DNA of 38,628 nt, from positions 1 to 38,628 of IMG/VR virus record IMGVR_UViG_2711768037_000009; one strand, written 5' to 3'. The translations under genes were made by a program, and so were the position numbers. Positions 5,528 through 19,603 of this stretch are shown here, piece by piece. The notes under the pieces are model-generated. The model saw nothing but the letters and a program-made list of their open reading frames with translations. It was not told where the DNA came from and did no database searches. The first letter of the stretch is position 1. The number at the start of each line of letters is the position of its first letter. Source of the stretch: a virus. Its lineage: Duplodnaviria > Heunggongvirae > Uroviricota > Caudoviricetes.

Positions 5528-5604
5528 CCGCAGGCTAAAAACACCAACCTCTTACCTCCAGGCAACCGACAAACCTACCTGTTCCCGTCCGGCTACCGCA
5601 ACTT
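5528..5604. repeat. Iteron-like tandem repeats, cluster 2 (3 copies, same family and orientation as cluster 1)
   Basis: GCAGGCTAAAA, CCAACCTCTTACCTCCAGGCAACCG, CCTACCTGTTCCCGTCCGGCTACCG. Confidence 0.5.
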
Positions 5605-5651
5605 ACCACTTTGACGCCTTATTCGTACAACGATAATTAACACCAGCAAGA

Positions 5652-5664
5652 AAACAATTTGTTA
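5652..5664. promoter_or_regulatory. AAACA-ATT-TGTTA motif upstream of the 5685 gene
   Basis: AAACA-N3-TGTTT family, one mismatch. Confidence 0.35.
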
Positions 5665-5684
5665 TTTACGATAAGGAATTAATC

Positions 5685-6782: not shown

Positions 6783-7013
6783 TTATTTGTGTAAACTGAT
6801 TTTAAATCCCATTTCTACAAACGCTTTTAACATTAAAAATATATCAGCGTCGTTCACGTCTGCTTTTTTTCGCTCCTGGTCGCTCAATAAGTCAATTTTG
6901 CGCGTCGTTTCATCTATAAGCTCGACTGCGCGCCCAGCGTAACCAGCGATCCCAGCGATGCGATTAACATAATATTCATTATGGACGTTAACGCCAGCGA
7001 TAAGAACAAACAT
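6783..7013 (-). CDS. Small protein (76 aa), unknown
   Basis: ATG preceded by perfect SD AAGGAG at 8-nt spacing. Confidence 0.6.
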   Translation of the reverse strand: MFVLIAGVNVHNEYYVNRIAGIAGYAGRAVELIDETTRKIDLLSDQERKKADVNDADIFLMLKAFVEMGFKISLHK

Positions 7014-7034
7014 GATTAAGCTCCTTAAAAAAAA

Positions 7035-7238
7035 TTAAATAGAATTTTGAAGTTTTCCGATTAATGCGCTTAAACGTAAGTATTCACGTTTGCGCTTGCA
7101 ATCTCGCTTGCTGTTAAGTAAATCAGAAAACGTAAAATTTAATTGGTCGCGTTGCGCGATCAAATCATCGATTAATTCCAGTTTATAAGCGCGATACTTT
7201 GCGCGATATTCCGCGCGGATCTTGTCATAGCTGACCAT
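7035..7238 (-). CDS. Small basic coiled-coil protein (67 aa), unknown
   Basis: ATG preceded by AAGGAG; 21-nt gap to the downstream gene. Confidence 0.6.
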   Translation of the reverse strand: MVSYDKIRAEYRAKYRAYKLELIDDLIAQRDQLNFTFSDLLNSKRDCKRKREYLRLSALIGKLQNSI

Positions 7239-7254
7239 TTTAAAGCTCCTTTAA

Positions 7255-7273
7255 AGCGCCCATAGTGGGCGCT
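7255..7273. other. Hairpin AGCGCCC-atagt-GGGCGCT, inverted copy of the 6759-6777 hairpin
   Basis: Same stem, loop is the reverse complement; no U-tract. Confidence 0.5.
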
Positions 7274-7285
7274 TGATTCCATTAA

Positions 7286-7936
7286 TTACGCTTTGAAAGC
7301 ATCAGCTAAATAATTGTAGAAATCATTTTTAATGAAGCGATATTGCTGAGTACCAGCTTTTGCACTCCCAGCTCCTTTGACTTTTTCAACAAGTCCAAGA
7401 CGTTCGCAAAGATTGATCAACTGGTTGGCTTGAGTATAGCCAGCGTCCAATTTAATTTCGCACGCTTTTTTAGCTTCATTCATTAAATCGAAAACAGCGC
7501 CATTGGTGAACGTGTCGATCTCGTCGTTAATCATATCGATTAAAGCGAATACACGAGATCCAGACATATCAGCGACGGAATAAACACATTTTCCAGCTTT
7601 AATGGATTTAACCAAATAAACCAGTTTTTCCAGTGAATAACTATTAGTCATAGCGTCACGAAAAAATACTTCTGGCGCTTGTTTGCTTGCTTTAATCGCA
7701 TAGTAGAAAACAGAGCATAATTTTTCGTCTTCTACAGCGTTTACAACGTTGTTGATGAAGTAAGCAAGTTTAGTGGTCGCAGCTTGCATATTTGCTTTGT
7801 CTGCTTTAGTGTGCGTACCATTTTTATAATGTTCGTTATATGTTTGAGTTGCCAGATCTGCTTTTTCGCGCAGCTCGTCGGATACAATGGAAGCAGCTTC
7901 AATGATGGATTTTTTAGAAATGATAATGTTAGCCAT
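7286..7936 (-). CDS. Hypothetical protein (216 aa)
   Basis: ORF track 7286..7945; second ATG has AAGGA at proper spacing. Confidence 0.6.
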   Translation of the reverse strand: MANIIISKKSIIEAASIVSDELREKADLATQTYNEHYKNGTHTKADKANMQAATTKLAYFINNVVNAVEDEKLCSVFYYAIKASKQAPEVFFRDAMTNSYSLEKLVYLVKSIKAGKCVYSVADMSGSRVFALIDMINDEIDTFTNGAVFDLMNEAKKACEIKLDAGYTQANQLINLCERLGLVEKVKGAGSAKAGTQQYRFIKNDFYNYLADAFKA

Positions 7937-8197
7937 GTTGAACATCCTTACGAAAAATTAAAATGAATTTATTTTTTGCTGTCGTTAGCCAGCTCGCTTT
8001 CGACGAGTTCAATTATCGATACGTGAAAAAAGATTGCAAGTGTTTTTTTTAAATTTTTTGCAGGGGTGAAAGTCCTAGAAATAAAAGCGAGATCCTCGAA
8101 GGTGTTCCCTAAATAAATAATAAATTCCGGCTTTTGACCTTATATATTTATACGGGGAGAATTGAATGAGTGTTAAACGAAGGGCATGTAAAATAAT

Positions 8198-8215
8198 AAC
8201 CGGACTTAGCCGGTT
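8198..8215. other. Hairpin AACCGG-acttag-CCGGTT with extended AT stem; possible terminator after the 174-aa gene
   Basis: Inverted repeat seen directly; weak U-tract. Confidence 0.3.
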
Positions 8216-8231
8216 ATTATCCTTATAGAAA

Positions 8232-8756
8232 TTAAAACGGAAGGATTCGTTCAACCCAATCGAAGAAAACAAGTATTTTTCTTCCGTCTTTCAACTTAAG
8301 AGTGACCTGACAAGCATCAACGCCTCTTGATACCCCTTCTATTTCACGACCGTCTGCCATGTAGACCCTTATAGATTGGTCGTTTTGATAAGCCTTGCGA
8401 CATATCGCAAAAAAGTCACGGCGTGATGGCTGATTGTCAACATAGTCTGGATGTATTGTTAGCCTACCTTTGAACTCGCGAGCAATGCCATCGATTACAC
8501 CTGATTCAATTGTGCTAATGCGCTCAAGTGGGAGTCTTATACGATTTTCTTTATCATATGGAAGCGGGCATAAATCTAGCTTATTGCGGGAAGGCATTGT
8601 CCCCTGAACGTACATGCAAAACACCTGACCGTCTTCAAGCGTGACTCTTACAGGAATGTTGTTCTTCCGCCAGAACATAAGTATGTTTTCAGCATGTTCG
8701 TAGTCTCGCGGCCAGACTTCAGCCGGTATGCCGTAGGTGATGTCCAATGTTCTCAT
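8232..8756 (-). CDS. Hypothetical protein (174 aa) with two similar beta-rich segments
   Basis: ATG start; start overlaps the stop of the upstream gene; no domain recognised. Confidence 0.6.
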   Translation of the reverse strand: MRTLDITYGIPAEVWPRDYEHAENILMFWRKNNIPVRVTLEDGQVFCMYVQGTMPSRNKLDLCPLPYDKENRIRLPLERISTIESGVIDGIAREFKGRLTIHPDYVDNQPSRRDFFAICRKAYQNDQSIRVYMADGREIEGVSRGVDACQVTLKLKDGRKILVFFDWVERILPF

Positions 8757-9352
8757 TCTGATACTCTTAGAGGTGTTTTCAGCAACCCAAATTTAAATTC
8801 TTTGTTACCAACGACAAAGAAGGGAACCTCAACATAGATTTTTTTATCGACGGATTTAGAGTTCGCTGTTTTCTGTATGTCACGAATGATACGTTTTGAG
8901 ATATTTTCATCGATAAACAATACCTTTCCACTTGTATTCCCTTCAGCCTTGGCGTAAGTAACGATAGGCTCTTCATTGCCAACCCTAATGTTTACTTGGC
9001 AACCTGTTGTAGCCATTTCATCACAGTAAAGTGTGCCGTCTTGAACTTCTAAAACAATTCCAGATGGCTTCATGGCTTCGTCAGAGCTTACATTAACGTT
9101 TTCTGGTACAGCGGTCCCGTTAATTTGCAACCGTAATCTTTCTTTTCCTCCATTAAGTATTGTTTCTTCTGCGTTGTCTGAGAATCTGAACCAAACTGGC
9201 TGATTCAGACCTCGTGATTTGTATTCTACTACGTCTTCGGAGGTAAACATGCTGTACGTTTTTTGCATGTCAGAGACGAAATCTGATAATGCGTTGGCGG
9301 AAAACGCCGGGAGGTATATACAAGCAAGGAGTAACGAAAGTTTCATTTTCAT
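8753..9352 (-). CDS. Predicted secreted protein or lipoprotein (signal peptide MKMKLSLLLAC...)
   Basis: ORF track 8753..9367; first ATG at 9352; hydrophobic N-terminus with a lipobox-like LLAC, then AFSANA. Confidence 0.6.
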   Translation of the reverse strand: MKMKLSLLLACIYLPAFSANALSDFVSDMQKTYSMFTSEDVVEYKSRGLNQPVWFRFSDNAEETILNGGKERLRLQINGTAVPENVNVSSDEAMKPSGIVLEVQDGTLYCDEMATTGCQVNIRVGNEEPIVTYAKAEGNTSGKVLFIDENISKRIIRDIQKTANSKSVDKKIYVEVPFFVVGNKEFKFGLLKTPLRVSE

Positions 9353-9367
9353 ATCATGATAATCCAA

Positions 9368-9856
9368 TTATTTAACATCACACTTTCTAAGTTTTTCTAT
9401 TTGTTCTAATTTTTCATGATCGTCATTTAGATTTCCTTCGACTATCTCCGTTTCAAGTTTGCTGATTAGCATGTTAAGTGCGTTGTAGTTATTGCATTTT
9501 ACTTTGTAGGCGTAGTATGACCTTGTCCCTGGTTTTTGTACACCCATATCATTAAAGTTAGAGCTTAAAGTATAACCTTCAAGTTCAACCCCTTTTATTG
9601 TTGGAAGAATTATATTTAATGGTTCTAATTTAAATGGGTAGATATAAATATGTGATATGAAGTACTCTTCTGAAGAGATTTTCTTCATGTCTTTTGTGAT
9701 TGAAACTGAATATTTATGGTTGCGAGTGATATAAAATTTTGTACATTTGTACGGCTCTAAGTTGAATAGATAATATTTGTCTTTAAAAAGAACATCTTTT
9801 CCATGTGATATTTTATGTCGTAAAGAGTTAATTATTTTGTTTATAGAAATACTCAT
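9368..9856 (-). CDS. Hypothetical protein (162 aa), very AT-rich gene
   Basis: ATG start; composition visibly more AT-rich than flanking genes; own upstream regulatory region. Confidence 0.6.
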   Translation of the reverse strand: MSISINKIINSLRHKISHGKDVLFKDKYYLFNLEPYKCTKFYITRNHKYSVSITKDMKKISSEEYFISHIYIYPFKLEPLNIILPTIKGVELEGYTLSSNFNDMGVQKPGTRSYYAYKVKCNNYNALNMLISKLETEIVEGNLNDDHEKLEQIEKLRKCDVK

Positions 9857-9949
9857 CTACAGTATCCGACCTTAGTTATCAATTGAAAAGCCTACAAATA
9901 TCGTTCAGCCAATCAAGAAATTTTTTCAGCCGGAGATGTGTACTTCAAA

Positions 9950-9971
9950 AAATGTGATGAATGTCACATGC
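9950..9971. promoter_or_regulatory. CRP-like binding site AAATGTGA-tgaatg-TCACATGC
   Basis: Matches TGTGA-N6-TCACA in both half-sites; ~100 bp upstream of the 9856 start on the minus strand. Confidence 0.45.
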
Positions 9972-10001
9972 GGGTGCTCTCATACACCTGCATGTAGACT
10001 A

Positions 10002-10568
10002 TTAATTATTCAATAATCTATATTTTCTTTTGATTAAATCTTCACCTTTTTTGGTGAACGCAAAACCAAATTGCGATTTTTTGTTTAGACGAAGGACTCT
10101 GTTATCCAACGCATCGATTGATGGAATCAATGTTTGATCATCTATCCAATTAAGCAGAGTAAGAAAGTTCAGCAGCCTCAACGTTGTTGTGCGAAGCTCT
10201 TTCGATATATTTTCAATGCTGGCAATTCGTCTTTGTTTTTTCTCAGGTGGTACAGATAATTGTTCTTGAGGTTTCGAGAATAGATAATCAATTTCGTTTG
10301 CTGCATCGAATGATATGTGTGGCGTAATTTTTCTAAAAAAGCCTTTCGCTGACTCACTTGATAATAAACCAGATCTATTCATATCGTTTGTTATTCTGTA
10401 CAGGAGTGGACTGTGTTTCATTTCAGGATAACGTTGATAAAAGTTAAGCAATTCAAAAGCAGCATTAGCACCAACAAGAAAATCAGAAGGATCGCTGACT
10501 TTCCAGAAAGAATGATTTTTCTTAGCGCCAGTGGTGTCAACAAATGATAATTCTTTTAACCAACTCAT
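10002..10568 (-). CDS. Hypothetical protein (188 aa)
   Basis: ORF track 10002..10601; ATG at residue 12 preceded by AAAGGAG. Confidence 0.6.
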   Translation of the reverse strand: MSWLKELSFVDTTGAKKNHSFWKVSDPSDFLVGANAAFELLNFYQRYPEMKHSPLLYRITNDMNRSGLLSSESAKGFFRKITPHISFDAANEIDYLFSKPQEQLSVPPEKKQRRIASIENISKELRTTTLRLLNFLTLLNWIDDQTLIPSIDALDNRVLRLNKKSQFGFAFTKKGEDLIKRKYRLLNN

Positions 10569-10633
10569 GATGTGCTCCTTTCTAACAAGTGAGCACATCA
10601 TAGAATTAGTAGATAGGGGGTAAATATGAAATG

Positions 10634-10912
10634 TTACGGCAACCTGCTCAGTATTTCCTCTAAATCTTTTTTTGTCATATTGGAGTTTTCATAGATGCGC
10701 ATGATTTTCTCACGCGTCTTAGCGGAAACCCCAACGGCAGATGTGACTTTGTCAAATTCAGCCATAGTCATCGTCTCCAGAATGGCATTGATAACTTCAG
10801 CCTTAGACATCTTGATTTTTTTCTCTTTGAGTTTTATTTGAAATTTTCCAAGTTTTTCATTGGCCTTATCAGACAATGCCACTTGGCAATAAGTTGTTTT
10901 CTTTTCGCTCAT
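10634..10912 (-). CDS. Small protein (92 aa), possible ribbon-helix-helix type DNA-binding protein
   Basis: ATG start 3 nt downstream of the helicase stop; Lys-rich N-terminus; fold call is weak. Confidence 0.5.
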   Translation of the reverse strand: MSEKKTTYCQVALSDKANEKLGKFQIKLKEKKIKMSKAEVINAILETMTMAEFDKVTSAVGVSAKTREKIMRIYENSNMTKKDLEEILSRLP

Positions 10913-10914
10913 AA

Positions 10915-12474
10915 CTAATCTCGTTTCAGAACTCTAAAATCGAATGCGCCATCAATAGGCAATACACCTTCCGCAAAGCCAGGTGTGGTGTCGATGATGT
11001 GTTTTCGCTCATAAGAGTGAGACAACAGATATTTGTTGCTAATGTCAATAAAATCAGTGATAAAACATACGTTTGCCTGATTCTTCTTGGCTCGTAAGCC
11101 ACGACCGACACGCTGTCTCATTTCAACTTCTGCTTTCCCACCACCAGCAAGAATGACCGCACCAACGCTTGGCACATCAACACCAACATCCAGAATAGTC
11201 GAGCCTATTAAAACATCTATTTCACCAGATGCTAAACTGTTCAGCTTTGCTTGCCTTGTCGTCTGGTTAGATTCACCATAGATGAAATCAACTCTAAGAC
11301 CTGACTCCTTCATCATCTCCATCAGGATTTGCCCGTGGCGTTTAAGACGAACCAGAGTCATGCAGTTGAGTGAATGTTGTTTATAAAGCAATGCCTCGCG
11401 CACTATGGCCTCATTACGTCCCAAATTATACACGATCCCCAACTGATAAGCCTTTTGGTAGGCGGTGCTCATACCAACTCTAAAATTGAGGTGTTTGTTG
11501 GCAAGTTCGGCCTTGATTCTGGCCTCGTCTGGCTTGTAGGCAACTTTATGATAAAGGAAGTACGGCTTTGCCAGAATGCCTCGATCAATCAGGTACTTTT
11601 CTGTGACTTTAATTTCAATTCGCCCGGCCACAGCCATCAGACGCATGTTGGCTTCTGTAGAATCCTTCATGAACGGCGTGGCTGTAAGCGCCAGACGATA
11701 GTCTGCGTTCACACATAATCTGGCAATGTCATAGAAATTAGAACCTGAAGACTCATGCGCCTCTTCCAGAATAAGCAGAGATACACTTGAAAGGAAGCGT
11801 TTCACCAAGTCCCGACGTTTGAGGTGGTAGCTCTTCTTATCTGGAGTTGCATCGCGTGGTGGCTCTTCAAGGAAACTTGCCAGAGTTTGAACTGTAGCGA
11901 CGTTGATATGTCGTGATACCTGGAACTCACCCGAGCCAATTACTCCAACCTCTTGGTCCTTTAACCACGGTTCGCCATTTTCGGCGCGGTAGTCGATGGA
12001 TCTCTGGAAGTTTTCGGCCATTTGAAACATCAGAACAGAGCGGGTTGTTAAAAATAATGTCATTCGACCGATACGTGCAGCTGCTTTGCAGGCAACGTTA
12101 GATTTCCCGCCACCAGTAGCGATCTGCGCAATCATCATTCCCTCTCGAACCAGTGTTTCTACTGTCTGATCTTGGTACGCATAATCAGGGTTGTATGGAA
12201 ATGGGTTAACCGCCGGATTTGGTTTACCCAGCGCCGGGGCTTTGTCTTTGCGGATATGAACACATTTGATGCCCGCCTTGTTCAAATTAGCCGCCACGGG
12301 CTTGGCAAAGCCAGCAGGGAACGAGTTTTTGCTCCAGTTGAACATTGTGCTTGTGCCCTTCCAGTCGCCAGCCTCGACTTCGTAGCTCAACATTTGCTGC
12401 ACCAGTTGCTTTACCTTGTCATCTGCGCCAGAAATAAGCGCATTTACTGCGTTAGATACAATCCGAACAGTCAT
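10915..12474 (-). CDS. Superfamily-2 (DEAD/DEAH-box type) helicase, 519 aa
   Basis: Walker A ATGGGKS, motif II LILEEAHE, motif III LTATP, motif VI QRVGRGLR; GAGG SD before the ATG. Confidence 0.85.
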   Translation of the reverse strand: MTVRIVSNAVNALISGADDKVKQLVQQMLSYEVEAGDWKGTSTMFNWSKNSFPAGFAKPVAANLNKAGIKCVHIRKDKAPALGKPNPAVNPFPYNPDYAYQDQTVETLVREGMMIAQIATGGGKSNVACKAAARIGRMTLFLTTRSVLMFQMAENFQRSIDYRAENGEPWLKDQEVGVIGSGEFQVSRHINVATVQTLASFLEEPPRDATPDKKSYHLKRRDLVKRFLSSVSLLILEEAHESSGSNFYDIARLCVNADYRLALTATPFMKDSTEANMRLMAVAGRIEIKVTEKYLIDRGILAKPYFLYHKVAYKPDEARIKAELANKHLNFRVGMSTAYQKAYQLGIVYNLGRNEAIVREALLYKQHSLNCMTLVRLKRHGQILMEMMKESGLRVDFIYGESNQTTRQAKLNSLASGEIDVLIGSTILDVGVDVPSVGAVILAGGGKAEVEMRQRVGRGLRAKKNQANVCFITDFIDISNKYLLSHSYERKHIIDTTPGFAEGVLPIDGAFDFRVLKRD

Positions 12475-12513
12475 AAACCTCTTTCCTTAGTGCCTTTTGT
12501 ATGTTATTTGGCT

Positions 12514-12527
12514 ATTATAATAAGTAA
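12514..12527. promoter_or_regulatory. TATAAT -10-like element within the ATAATAAGTA motif, in the divergent region between the helicase and ParB-like genes
   Basis: GCTATTATAATAAGTAAGTAACTACTTAG; TATAAT readable on both strands. Confidence 0.4.
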
Positions 12528-12556
12528 GTAACTACTTAGTGGAATGTAGCAATAAA

Positions 12557-13237
12557 ATGGACGTAAAAATCACGATTTTGCAGGTTGATGTTGCCAACCT
12601 TCGCCCGAATACCTGGAACACCAATTCGGTTGGTGCGCAGAATTTCGAAAAACTGAAAGGTTCTATCGAAAAATTGGGCTTTTTTAAGCCAATTTTGGCT
12701 CGTGAGCTTGAAGATGGATTTTTTGAAATCCTCGGCGGCGAACATCGCTGGCGTGCTGCTATTGAGCAAGGAATTTCAACGGTTCCTGTGCTTTCTGTGG
12801 GCAAAATTAGCGATGTCGTGGCAAAACAGATGTCACTGGTGGACAACGAGCGATACGGTGAAGACGACCAAATCGCATTGCAACGCTTCATTGAAGAAAT
12901 TCAGTCAGAACTTGACTATCAACTGTCTGAAATCGCCCCGTATGACGACGAAATCTCGATGGTTTTAGCAAAAGAGGCGGCAATCGACCTTGAAGCACTG
13001 GAGGCGTTGTCTCGTGGTAGTGATGAGCCTGTCGATACCGACAAACGAGAGAAAACCGAACGTGTGGGTGCGGAACATCAGACCATGCGCTTCAAAGTAA
13101 CTTTCGATGCGTCAGATCGTGTTGCAGAAACCATAAAAAACATCATCAAAGAGCAGGCTATTAACACCGGTAATGAAATGGAGAACGCTGGTGAGGCTCT
13201 GGTGTGGCTGGTCGACTACTACAAGGAGCGTATGTAA
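12557..13237 (+). CDS. ParB/Srx-superfamily (ParB-like nuclease domain) protein 1
   Basis: ORF track 12539..13237; ATG at 12557; ParB-box-like GGEHRWRAA. Confidence 0.7.
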   Translation: MDVKITILQVDVANLRPNTWNTNSVGAQNFEKLKGSIEKLGFFKPILARELEDGFFEILGGEHRWRAAIEQGISTVPVLSVGKISDVVAKQMSLVDNERYGEDDQIALQRFIEEIQSELDYQLSEIAPYDDEISMVLAKEAAIDLEALEALSRGSDEPVDTDKREKTERVGAEHQTMRFKVTFDASDRVAETIKNIIKEQAINTGNEMENAGEALVWLVDYYKERM

Positions 13238-18070: not shown

Positions 18071-19603
18071 ATGGAATTGAACGACAAACAAATTAAGGAT
18101 CTGGTGGCGCGACGCCACCCGGAATACGAAAAGAAAAAAGAACATTGGGACTTTCTCGCTAGCACCTATGCTGGCGGGCGTGGTTGGTTTAGCGAAAATA
18201 TATTTAGGTACTTTAAAGAGGGCGACCAGGAATTTAAGGAGCGAGTTGAGCGTGCTTATCGATTCAACCACACCCGTGAAGTGGTAAATCTCATTAACAA
18301 GTATCTTTTTAAAGAAGATATTCATCGAAATATTGAAGAATCGCCAGAGCAGATCCGCAATTTCTGGAAACGAGCGACTCGCCAGAATGCCTCTATTGAT
18401 TCATTTATGGCCGCGATTGATTTGCAATCGTCTATATACGGTCGTATCTGGGTTGTTGTCGATAGCACGATGAGTGGTGATGTTGAATCAGTCGCTGACG
18501 AGAAAAAGAAAGATGCTCGTGCCTACGCCTACTGGATTTCACCGCAGCAAATGCTGGATGTGGCATGGGACGACGACGGGAATATGTTATGGGCGTTAAT
18601 TGTGGAAGTCGCTCGTGATGACGCAGATCCTTTTACTTCTACAGGTCAGGAATACCAACGTTATCGTCTTTGGACACAAAACGAGTGGTATTTGTTCCGT
18701 GAGGAAGTGAAGAAGGGCGCTAGTGGAGCAGCTCGTCGTCAGGCAAAAGTTATTTTAGAGGATAGCGACGAGCATAATCTGGGCGTAGTTCCTGTGTTTC
18801 CTGTTGATTGTATTGGAGAAAGTGAATCACCGTATTTCAGCCCATCGTTGATCGATGATATCGCTTATCTTGATCGTGCGGTTGCAAACTATCTGTCAAA
18901 CCTTGATGCCATTATTCAGGATCAGACATTTAGCCAGTTGGCCATACCGGTGCAGTCACTTTTACCTGGTGATGATAATCACACTAAAGTTCTTGAAATG
19001 GGGACAAAACGTGTCTTTACCTACGATTCTGAAGGTGGAAACCAGCCGTTTTATTTATCACCAGACCCTAAACAAGCTCAGATGATCATCACTACGATTA
19101 AGACGGTGATTAACGAAATCTACCATTCAGTTGGTGTAGCTGGCGAGCGAACGAAGCAGGACAACGCACAGGGAATAGATAATTCATCTGGTGCTGCAAA
19201 AATGTATGACTTCCAGCGTGTAAATAGCTTGCTTGTCACAAAAGCAGATCGTCTTGAAAGGGCTGAACGCCAAATCATGCAACTGGTTGCTAAATGGATG
19301 GGGGTAGATCTGGACGAAGATCACTCTCTAATAGCATATCCAGAAAGTTTTGATATTCGCGGGCTTACTGATGAATTTTCTGTTGCGGAGAAACTATCGT
19401 TACTTCAGGCACCGGACTCTGTACGTCGTCAGCAGATGGAAATGCTGATTGAGAAGATTTTCCCTAATATCACTGAAGCGATGAAAAAGGAATTTGATAA
19501 AGATCTCTTGAAATTTCCGCCAAAAAATGATCTTAATGCTCTTGAAAATAAGTCTGTACTTACCTATGATCGCAGTGCTGTCCAAGAAAGCGGACAAAAT
19601 TAA
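18071..19603 (+). CDS. Portal protein (~510 aa)
   Basis: ORF track 18047..19603 (GTG); first ATG at 18071 after AAGGG; size and position between terminase and scaffold. Confidence 0.75.
   Translation: MELNDKQIKDLVARRHPEYEKKKEHWDFLASTYAGGRGWFSENIFRYFKEGDQEFKERVERAYRFNHTREVVNLINKYLFKEDIHRNIEESPEQIRNFWKRATRQNASIDSFMAAIDLQSSIYGRIWVVVDSTMSGDVESVADEKKKDARAYAYWISPQQMLDVAWDDDGNMLWALIVEVARDDADPFTSTGQEYQRYRLWTQNEWYLFREEVKKGASGAARRQAKVILEDSDEHNLGVVPVFPVDCIGESESPYFSPSLIDDIAYLDRAVANYLSNLDAIIQDQTFSQLAIPVQSLLPGDDNHTKVLEMGTKRVFTYDSEGGNQPFYLSPDPKQAQMIITTIKTVINEIYHSVGVAGERTKQDNAQGIDNSSGAAKMYDFQRVNSLLVTKADRLERAERQIMQLVAKWMGVDLDEDHSLIAYPESFDIRGLTDEFSVAEKLSLLQAPDSVRRQQMEMLIEKIFPNITEAMKKEFDKDLLKFPPKNDLNALENKSVLTYDRSAVQESGQN

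Follow-up and report, generated by a model that had tools for sequence, protein, structure and literature searches.

An SSU5-like phage-plasmid of Escherichia is the source of the 38,628-nucleotide (nt) stretch of viral DNA analyzed here (IMG/VR record IMGVR_UViG_2711768037_000009, referred to at its full length as the window), and within it we have delineated a locus in which cargo genes are exchanged between a conserved promoter-like block and a conserved gene of the FljA family. Our preferred account, held with a little better than even confidence, is a composite one, in which a variable slot, a conserved anchor and a scaffold promoter modulated by CRP are combined with promoterless cargo that is exchanged. 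The original prediction for this region, made from the sequence alone, had described an AT-rich accessory island of four consecutive minus-strand genes with the character of a phage moron. All four open reading frames (ORFs) are present as claimed, and they are real genes: the ratio of non-synonymous to synonymous substitution (dN/dS) against a diverged copy of the locus, L016, is 0.13, 0.31, 0.17 and 0.16 for the 188-, 162-, 199- and 174-amino-acid (aa) genes respectively, indicating purifying selection.

In the composite model the locus would be assembled from three layers (coordinates in Table 1). The first would be the conserved anchor, made up of the FljA-family gene and an invariant terminator. 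The second would be an optional module containing the 188-aa ORFan gene, a covarying hairpin, a CRP-type box and a weak promoter of sigma-70 type, and the third would be promoterless cargo, recombined between the -10 element of this promoter and the opening codons of the FljA-like gene. While the element exists as a plasmid (the lysogenic state), host CRP complexed with cyclic AMP would bind the box and modulate the weak promoter at 9889-9916, yielding a transcript that spans the 162-aa gene, an exported-protein gene and the FljA-like gene and ends at the terminator, with the exported protein translationally coupled to the FljA-like gene. Expression of the operon would thereby follow the carbon and energy state of the host, and the cargo would probably serve lysogenic conversion or exclusion, acting at the envelope and against incoming DNA.

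Exchange of cargo behind a promoter-like block

The boundaries of the slot are defined by comparison with close relatives. Across region 7000-13000, identity reaches 96% with Escherichia phage CMS-2020a, lies at about 95-96% with PhiR41_1 and Cyrano (pLF82) and drops to 79% with Salmonella phage SSU5; the wider group of SSU5-like phage-plasmids we take to include S. Typhi pHCM2, Y. pestis pMT1 and E. coli O104:H4 p09EL50. In comparison with Cyrano and PhiR41_1, homology extends from 13000 down to 9888 and resumes at 8744, and the exchanged segment between these breakpoints comprises the 162-aa gene and the exported-protein gene. The accessory status foreseen for the two middle genes is thus borne out by a cassette that is swapped among phage-plasmids otherwise 95-97% identical. 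Its predicted compositional peculiarity is equally evident, as the 162-aa gene, at 29.0% GC (27.6% at third codon positions) in a window of 45.5% GC, has less GC than any other 489-bp stretch of the window. The exchanged segment does not include the promoter-like block, and the terminator follows the core FljA-like gene rather than belonging to the cargo. Homology between plasmids carrying different cargo stops 1-2 nt past the -10-like hexamer (9888), and five first genes, unrelated or very diverged, have their start codons 27-39 nt downstream of that hexamer. A search for flanking repeats or att-like sites around the cassette returned nothing meaningful.

The same order of non-coding elements precedes the slot in three diverged loci, L016, L017 and L022, all of which were found through their proteins and hence independently of the CRP-type box: a hairpin whose stem letters differ while pairing is kept, TGTGA-N6-TCACA, CTCCGGCTGAAAAAA, TCTTGATTGGCT, about nine variable nt and TTTGTAGGCTT. 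Most columns of CTCCGGCTGAAAAAA (CT.CGGC and the A run) are invariant in the alignment, though they lay outside the search pattern. The TTGATT and TAGGCT hexamers are separated by a 16-nt spacer. Synonymous sites are saturated between lineages (synonymous divergence pS of about 0.78 against L017, from Citrobacter), so the invariance of these non-coding blocks implies selection. We suggest, from conservation and position, that the block is a weak, activator-dependent promoter belonging to the scaffold and driving whatever cargo comes next. Promoters of the sigma-28 and sigma-54 types were compared by eye and rejected, the matching bases not being conserved between lineages. The -10 block alone occurs elsewhere in the window at chance frequency. 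One of the diverged loci, L022 (JAEWTL010000044.1, deposited as 'MAG: Bacillota bacterium'), is a 29.6-kb fragment of an enterobacterial SSU5-like phage-plasmid whose helicase is 93% identical to that of the window; its presence in a Bacillota bin almost certainly reflects contamination during binning.

At least five different cargo sets stand behind the same promoter block in 38 loci. The arrangement of the window, with the 162-aa, exported 199-aa and FljA-like genes, is the commonest (19/38). Ten loci encode a 377-aa HNH protein or its N-terminal remnant, a convergent 266-aa lipoprotein and the FljA-like protein; three carry genes for a 191-aa protein, a 117-aa secreted protein, the 266-aa lipoprotein and the FljA-like protein; a 180-aa protein, a 139-140-aa lipoprotein and the FljA-like protein are encoded in one, and a relative of the 180-aa gene disrupted by an insertion sequence (IS) is found in another. 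A further arrangement joins a remnant of the 162-aa gene to a gene for an exported 196-aa protein and the FljA-like gene; this remnant was not detected by BLAST in two loci, and two further copies of the architecture were scored by BLAST under the first one. Taken together, these arrangements follow a recurring grammar of a fast-evolving cytoplasmic protein, an exported protein and the FljA-like gene, with frequent turnover that leaves remnants behind. The cassette is confined to plasmids of about 110 kb and is never chromosomal in 5426 complete E. coli genomes, among which the exported-protein gene is present in 81 and both cassette genes in 35.

Table 1 Features of the locus and their positions in the window
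Feature	Position	Strand	Remarks
188-aa ORFan gene	10002-10568	minus	ATG start with good ribosome-binding site; 199 aa from an upstream ATG
GC-rich hairpin	9966-9995	minus	just 3' of the 188-aa stop codon; folding free energy (dG) -20 kcal/mol, z -3.8
CRP-type box TGTGA-cattca-TCACA	9953-9968	-	perfect core (10/10), TTT flank
Near-invariant block CTCCGGCTGAAAAAA	9921-9935	minus	A-tract end, UP-element-like; abuts the -35-like hexamer upstream
-35-like hexamer TTGATT	9911-9916	minus	inside conserved TCTTGATTGGCT; invariant in L016, L017 and L022
-10-like hexamer TAGGCT	9889-9894	minus	inside conserved TTTGTAGGCTT; invariant across lineages
Swappable cargo cassette	8745-9887	minus	homology breakpoints against Cyrano and PhiR41_1
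162-aa AT-rich gene, cytoplasmic product	9368-9856	minus	first position after the promoter-like block
199-aa exported-protein gene	8753-9352	minus	204 aa with a TTG start
174-aa FljA-family (PF03614) gene	8232-8756	minus	full-length Pfam match
Intrinsic terminator, predicted	8190-8223	minus	14-bp stem and U-run; dG -15.8, z -3.3

A DEAD-box helicase gene (10915-12474) and a gene of 92 aa precede the locus, which forms part of a minus-strand block; downstream of it is an ORFan gene of 219 aa, after which come plus-strand genes for ParB, an ABC-ATPase, terminase and virion proteins. Rfam gave no match in the window, and no tRNA genes are present in it. Beyond the locus, a highly charged 67-aa protein without a hydrophobic segment (7035-7238, minus strand) bears the name 'MIT family metal ion transporter' in PHROGs and RefSeq (phrog_6145, SSU5_119), which looks like a propagated annotation error.

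A CRP-type box in the 188-aa gene module

A CRP-like site had been predicted ahead of the 162-aa gene, and the site is indeed present, with a perfect core and with conservation across lineages. No perfect TGTGA-N6-TCACA other than TGTGATGAATGTCACA, at exactly 9953-9968, occurs in the window. By chance, 0.08 such matches would be expected per window, and 8 of 100 shuffled sequences contain one; the box alone is thus only mildly unusual, and it is conservation that makes the site convincing. Counted by eye over the 22-nt CRP consensus, agreement amounts to 16/22 in the window and 18/22 in L016. As a safeguard against circularity, viral and metagenome contigs were queried with the promoter block only, leaving out the box, and the box is present in all genuine hits, at 50 nt upstream in most and at 45-46 nt in one sublineage. 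Elsewhere in the window, a one-mismatch CRP-like sequence, GGTGATGATAATCACA, lies inside the virion-gene block at 18968-18983; since 1.6 one-mismatch matches are expected per window, it is consistent with chance.

The pattern of change within the box is informative. GTGA and TCAC are invariant in 11 of 11 representative sequences from about seven lineages, and at least ten different spacers separate them (CATTCA, CACTCA, CATTCG, CATCCA, CATTTG, TATTGA, TCATTA, TTTATA, TCTACA and TATATA). Only two half-site changes are seen, each a single substitution of the outermost base (CGTGA in L017 and TCACG in L042); positions 6 and 11 tend to T and A, as in the CRP consensus, and the flanks are variable. 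Four of the five pair positions of the palindrome never vary and none of the 11 sequences shows a compensatory change. A variable spacer between fixed half-sites, changing without compensation, argues for sequence-specific recognition rather than maintenance of a stem.

Such constraint bears directly on an alternative in which the palindrome is an RNA structure only, forming the second part of a two-hairpin intrinsic terminator of the 188-aa gene, with its likeness to a CRP site a coincidence. The palindrome does lie directly downstream of the 188-aa stop codon; when four lineages are folded, two hairpins appear in tandem, of which the palindrome makes the second, and in the window, L016, L017 and L035 that hairpin is followed by 5-6 U. 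A structural stem should nevertheless drift with compensation, as the adjacent hairpin has done: compensatory double changes are found in 3 of its 7 pairs, a degree of covariation reached in 0 of 500 shuffles, whereas CGTGA and TCACG break pairing in the palindrome and nothing restores it. Moreover, the U-run is reduced to TTT in L022, L034, L055 and L062, in which the half-sites are intact, so that at least 5 U are present in only about four of the seven lineages, and a stem of 5-6 bp with just two G-C pairs would make a weak terminator. We therefore regard the purely structural explanation as unlikely. The GC-rich hairpin next to the box, conversely, is probably a terminator or an RNA-stabilizing element of the 188-aa transcript.

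The box had been assigned to the AT-rich gene as its own upstream region. This assignment does not hold, because the box lies inside the homology that extends from 13000 to 9888 and travels with the 188-aa module; where the module is missing, no CRP-like box precedes the exported-protein and FljA-like genes. The 188-aa gene (34.7% GC) occurs in 87 of the 5426 complete E. coli genomes, always on plasmids; SSU5, pMT1 and the Kluyvera, Buttiauxella and S. sonnei plasmids lack it. When 1.84 billion proteins were searched exhaustively with HMMER, only its own family and one 43%-identical relative were recovered, and the protein has no match in Pfam, NCBIfam, PADLOC or the PDB. The 188-aa gene, the hairpin, the CRP-type box and the promoter-like block together constitute one optional mobile module. 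The broader expectation of an island placed behind a site for a host factor remains apt, in that the cassette sits 3' of a conserved, predicted CRP-type box.

The strict association of the box with the 188-aa gene, and a 188-aa product without assigned function, could also mean that the palindrome is the operator of a regulator encoded by the phage-plasmid, the obvious candidate being the linked 188-aa protein acting on the cargo promoter or on its own read-through. We consider this very unlikely. No DNA-binding domain was detected in the protein, and the presence of a single palindrome copy in 38.6 kb argues against a set of phage repressor operators. The protein diverges to 41-44% identity, yet the half-sites stay at the CRP consensus, where a co-evolving pair would be expected to drift; host CRP is accordingly the most economical reader of the box.

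Several observations weigh against the CRP-modulated composite model and must be set beside this evidence. CRP sites are phased at -61.5, -72.5 and -82.5 in class I promoters and at -41.5 in class II promoters; the center of the box lies about 44.5 bp upstream of the -35-like hexamer, at about -79, a spacing some 2 bp off the 46.5 bp that corresponds to the canonical class I position of -82.5, and in one sublineage the box is 4-5 bp closer to the promoter-like block. The two hexamers share only 7 of 12 positions with the sigma-70 consensus, and a generic promoter scan missed the block. In several lineages the palindrome can fold into a small hairpin followed by a U-run. Relatives without the 188-aa gene have no box, and expression of the FljA-like gene in general thus does not require it. 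In Cyrano-type plasmids the promoter-like block is followed by nothing but a gene remnant. Finally, no cargo protein of the window resembles a characterized conversion, exclusion or defense protein.

Cargo proteins and their possible roles

The original prediction saw no recognizable function in any of the four genes. For three of them this stands: Pfam, NCBIfam and PADLOC yield no match for the 188-, 162- and 199-aa proteins (one sub-threshold match, given below, aside), PHROGs places them only in families without assigned function, and searches among 5.8 billion proteins recover narrow families bound to SSU5-like elements. For the 174-aa protein it does not, as this matches Pfam PF03614 from end to end (E 5.7e-81). 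Sequence searches of the four proteins against the PDB gave no match.

The 162-aa gene is conspicuously AT-rich, just as had been noted, and its product falls into only 3 clusters among the 5.8 billion proteins. Eight of the 9 loci examined keep its ORF intact; in L011 the gene is frameshifted close to its 3' end, and in L022, L030 and L055 only about 30 N-terminal codons are left. In p09EL50 (L006, NC_018651.1, 4124-4612), the RefSeq call of '106 aa' reflects an internal Met start, the full ORF being intact. Diverged four-gene copies encode 162-aa proteins of 80% identity in L016 and 57-58% in L017. The AlphaFold2 (AF2) model, with a pLDDT of 48, is not good enough for a structure search; comparison of the family profile with the PDB gave no match, and a sub-threshold match of residues 6-28 to YmgB/AriR was taken as noise. 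More distant relatives occupy the same position in other cargo sets: the 191-aa protein of PhiR41_1 (pairwise E 2e-5) and the 180-aa protein of L035 (E 2e-4), which are also related to each other (E 2e-10). The 180-aa protein is in turn collinear with the N-terminal 189 residues of the 377-aa HNH protein (BLASTP E 2e-5); the link of the 162-aa family to the latter rests on pairwise BLASTP, as hhalign gives it a probability of only 8%. These comparisons suggest that the 162-aa protein is a member of a fast-diverging family that is always found in first position after the promoter-like block.

The 377-aa protein, present in L015 (6708-7841, GCA_053096905.1) and L025, carries a C-terminal HNH domain whose closest relative is that of E. 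coli McrA (PDB 6ghc, E 6e-4; BLASTP 43% identity over 44 residues, E 4e-8), and it gives weak matches to the PADLOC HNH and mREase_IV models. This resemblance makes it a candidate type IV restriction enzyme, one whose N-terminal domain is new. Cyrano-type plasmids retain about the first 80 codons of its gene (L001, approximately 5560-5680).

The protein encoded next had been predicted to have a signal peptide and a lipobox-like LLAC. The signal peptide is evident, the N-terminus reading MKMKLSLLLACIYLPAFSANA and the mature protein beginning with LSD, so that an envelope-targeted product is indeed part of the island. The letters of the LLAC motif are also there, but its Cys is not conserved, being absent from the homologues of Klebsiella, Citrobacter and other diverged lineages (P0013, P0016, L017, L022 and L034). 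It is residue 9-11 from either ATG start, which is too near the N-terminus for a lipoprotein signal; the lipobox definition applied was [LVI][ASTVI][GAS]C, its Cys being invariant and lying some 15-35 residues into the protein. All full-length homologues instead have an A-x-A site for signal peptidase I (with a slash at the point of cleavage, SANA/LSD, SVNA/VSD, SAYA/LSD, STFA/ISD and SSHA/VSD), a site that is kept where the lipobox Cys is lost, and a lipoprotein is therefore unlikely. Two cysteines of the mature protein, C110 and C118, are invariant in this narrow family of 14 clusters, all on SSU5-like elements. We predict that the 199-aa product is probably a soluble, disulfide-bonded periplasmic protein, exported by Sec and signal peptidase I. 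Its AF2 model has a beta-rich core (pLDDT 70-85), and the modeled fold is probably a beta-sandwich. The choice of sensible experiments shifts with this correction from 'lipoprotein' to 'periplasmic protein'. Genuine lipoproteins are encoded at the same position in relatives, for example SSU5_122 (LITAC/Q) and CYRAN_115 of Cyrano (LLTGC/D).

It is tempting to speculate that the 162-aa and exported proteins, with or without the 188-aa protein, form an anti-phage system acting by exclusion or abortive infection, a reading that is compatible with the regulatory model set out above and that we hold as a real, if doubtful, possibility. The slot behaves as a hotspot, with rapid turnover, remnants and IS disruption; the 162-aa family combines fast divergence with a fixed position; one first-position allele is fused to the McrA-like HNH domain; and the second position always encodes an exported protein or lipoprotein. 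Known exclusion systems likewise use exported proteins or lipoproteins, as exemplified by T5 Llp, phi80 Cor and T4 Sp/Imm. The recurring grammar and turnover are the behavior of arms-race cargo and lend indirect support to such a role. Conversely, none of the four proteins of the window matches the PADLOC-DB 2.0 models at E <= 0.1 or the characterized exclusion proteins, and a defense or exclusion role of the island therefore remains a guess. Pfam and profile searches find no HNH, nuclease or other effector domain in the 162-aa allele, the pairwise E values that tie its relatives to the HNH protein are only of the order of 1e-4 to 1e-5, and exported-protein and FljA-like alleles reassort freely, which argues against a co-adapted pair.

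A FljA-like anchor and comparison with known systems

The 174-aa protein covers positions 1-170 of the 170 in PF03614 (repressor of phase-1 flagellin, FljA) with a score of 270.8 bits, the Pfam gathering cut-off being 24, and it matches phrog_1444 ('transcriptional repressor') with an E value of 5e-98. Against genuine Salmonella FljA, BLASTP gives 34% identity over the full length (E 3e-34). Residues 123-165 show a weak Sm/Hfq-like signal, which fits the RNA-binding mode of FljA, a protein that binds the fliC mRNA leader. By homology, we predict that the 174-aa protein is an Sm-like RNA-binding, post-transcriptional repressor. Its homologue SSU5_121 is already in databases as 'putative repressor of phase 1 flagellin', and a literature search found no paper that links SSU5-like elements with FljA or flagellin.

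This gene had been counted as part of the accessory island, from which it must now be removed. By tblastn it is present on 835 PLSDB plasmids, nearly all non-mobilizable and about 105-115 kb in size, from Klebsiella (345), Escherichia (229), Enterobacter (92), Yersinia (62) and Salmonella (60) among other hosts. Of 14 phage records that contain it, 12 are SSU5-like and the other two are partial matches in short fragment records. Occurrence on so many SSU5-like plasmids, including those of non-flagellate Klebsiella hosts, identifies it as a core gene of the SSU5/pHCM2/pMT1 group. Its alleles are mosaic. The protein of the window is 98.8% identical to that of Cyrano and 87% identical to that of CMS-2020a (SCU-175), although the flanking DNA of the latter is about 96% identical to the window, and in S. 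sonnei plasmids the exported-protein gene is 96% identical and the FljA-like gene beside it 75%; hence, alleles reassort by recombination inside the locus. The stop codon of the exported-protein gene and the start codon of the FljA-like gene overlap as ATGA (8753-8756).

Could the locus be an anti-flagellar conversion module, in which the FljA-like protein, co-expressed under CRP, blocks translation of host flagellin? The full-length family match invites the idea, which we nonetheless judge highly unlikely. Klebsiella and Y. pestis are non-motile, yet the gene is kept at 67-78% identity on the 345 Klebsiella and 62 Y. pestis plasmids. Genuine fljA adjoins hin and fljB; here the neighbors are the exported-protein gene and the 219-aa ORFan, and no flagellin or hin gene is linked. 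A search of the window for likeness to the E. coli fliC 5' untranslated region, which covers a phage-borne target only, returned chance 9-12-mers, and the fold match is not significant by Foldseek. Non-motile hosts and the lack of a linked flagellin gene make it improbable that flagellin alone is the target, and an mRNA of the phage-plasmid or of the host in general is more likely.

The terminator 3' of the FljA-like gene, which we predict closes the operon, is invariant in sequence from E. coli to SSU5 and Y. pestis pMT1. It belongs to an unusually conserved non-coding region of about 290 bp between the FljA-like and 219-aa genes (7946-8231, minus strand), whose conservation spans E. coli, Citrobacter, SSU5 and Y. 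pestis pMT1. Its long invariant blocks comprise the terminator, repeats of TATAAGG-N8-9-CCG, TTTATTTAGGnAACACCTTCGA, TTGCAA-16-GATAAT (promoter-like, 8039-8012), the palindrome TATCGATA and ATCGAAAGC..GCTAACGA. The region may serve as a regulatory leader and is possibly the target of the FljA-like protein. Directly 3' of the FljA-like gene, L035 and L042 encode an extra secreted protein of 98-102 aa (MKSILL...SVAANA/), and L010 has a 99-aa ORF with a weak ValRS_modifier match, indicating that the downstream side of the gene is also a minor insertion point.

A more ambitious interpretation would join these parts into a nutrient-gated system for defense or host manipulation, comprising a CRP promoter, interchangeable two-gene modules and a universal FljA-type repressor as post-transcriptional switch or, in flagellate hosts, as flagellin silencer, with each module supplying a rapidly evolving cytoplasmic recognition protein (sometimes as an McrA-type nuclease fusion) and an exported partner. 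Were this true, the system would be a previously unrecognized one spanning the SSU5-like group, including pHCM2, pMT1 and p09EL50; we think it a slim prospect. The composite model of a slot, anchor and scaffold promoter is more modest in its claims, and nothing here overturns current ideas, the locus being a well-behaved phage accessory hotspot. Its relevance is practical: SSU5-like phage-plasmids are common in clinical Enterobacteriaceae and most of their genes are without annotation, and a slot with a defined promoter, probably tied to the catabolite state of the host, indicates where lysogenic-conversion or anti-phage functions might be sought. The core FljA homologue raises the further question of what an FljA-type repressor regulates in hosts without flagella.

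Comparison with known systems places the individual components. Salmonella FljA, the post-transcriptional repressor of fliC, has the same size, a full-length match and a weakly Sm/Hfq-like C-terminal half in common with the 174-aa protein; unlike fljA, the gene of the window is without a link to hin-fljB and is core to phage-plasmids that include those of non-flagellate hosts. Class I CRP promoters of the lac P1 and malT type resemble the predicted site in its perfect core, TTT flank, weak sigma-70-like promoter and A-tract, and differ in the canonical positions of -72.5 and -82.5, against about -79 here. E. coli McrA, from prophage e14, shares with the 377-aa allele of L015 an architecture of N-terminal domain followed by HNH, whereas the 162-aa protein of the window corresponds to the N-terminal domain only and has no nuclease; hhalign found no similarity between the first-position N-terminal domain and that of McrA. 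Like T5 Llp, phi80/N15 Cor and T4 Sp/Imm, the exported protein is small, phage-encoded, envelope-targeted and accessory in position, but it shows no sequence or confident fold similarity to any of them and, while Llp and Cor are lipoproteins, it has no conserved lipobox. A resemblance to the IalB-like beta-sandwich (PDB 3dtd) amounts to 9% identity on a model of moderate confidence, and neither a Pfam IalB match nor Foldseek confirms it.

The closest parallel for the locus as a whole is provided by phage morons and hotspots such as lambda bor/lom, the HK97/HK022 morons and the P2/P4 loci, with which it shares small genes of deviant GC content, presence or absence in near-identical phages, conserved flanks, likely prophage expression and remnants. 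A textbook moron has its own promoter and terminator. Here the predicted promoter belongs to the scaffold, as part of the 188-aa module, the cargo lacks a promoter, a conserved core gene rather than a terminator of its own ends the operon, and the allele in the window has no known defense gene. The locus is thus an accessory hotspot of the familiar moron or P2-hotspot kind, to which our analysis adds a conserved CRP-type box, exchange anchored at a promoter-like block and a first-position protein family.

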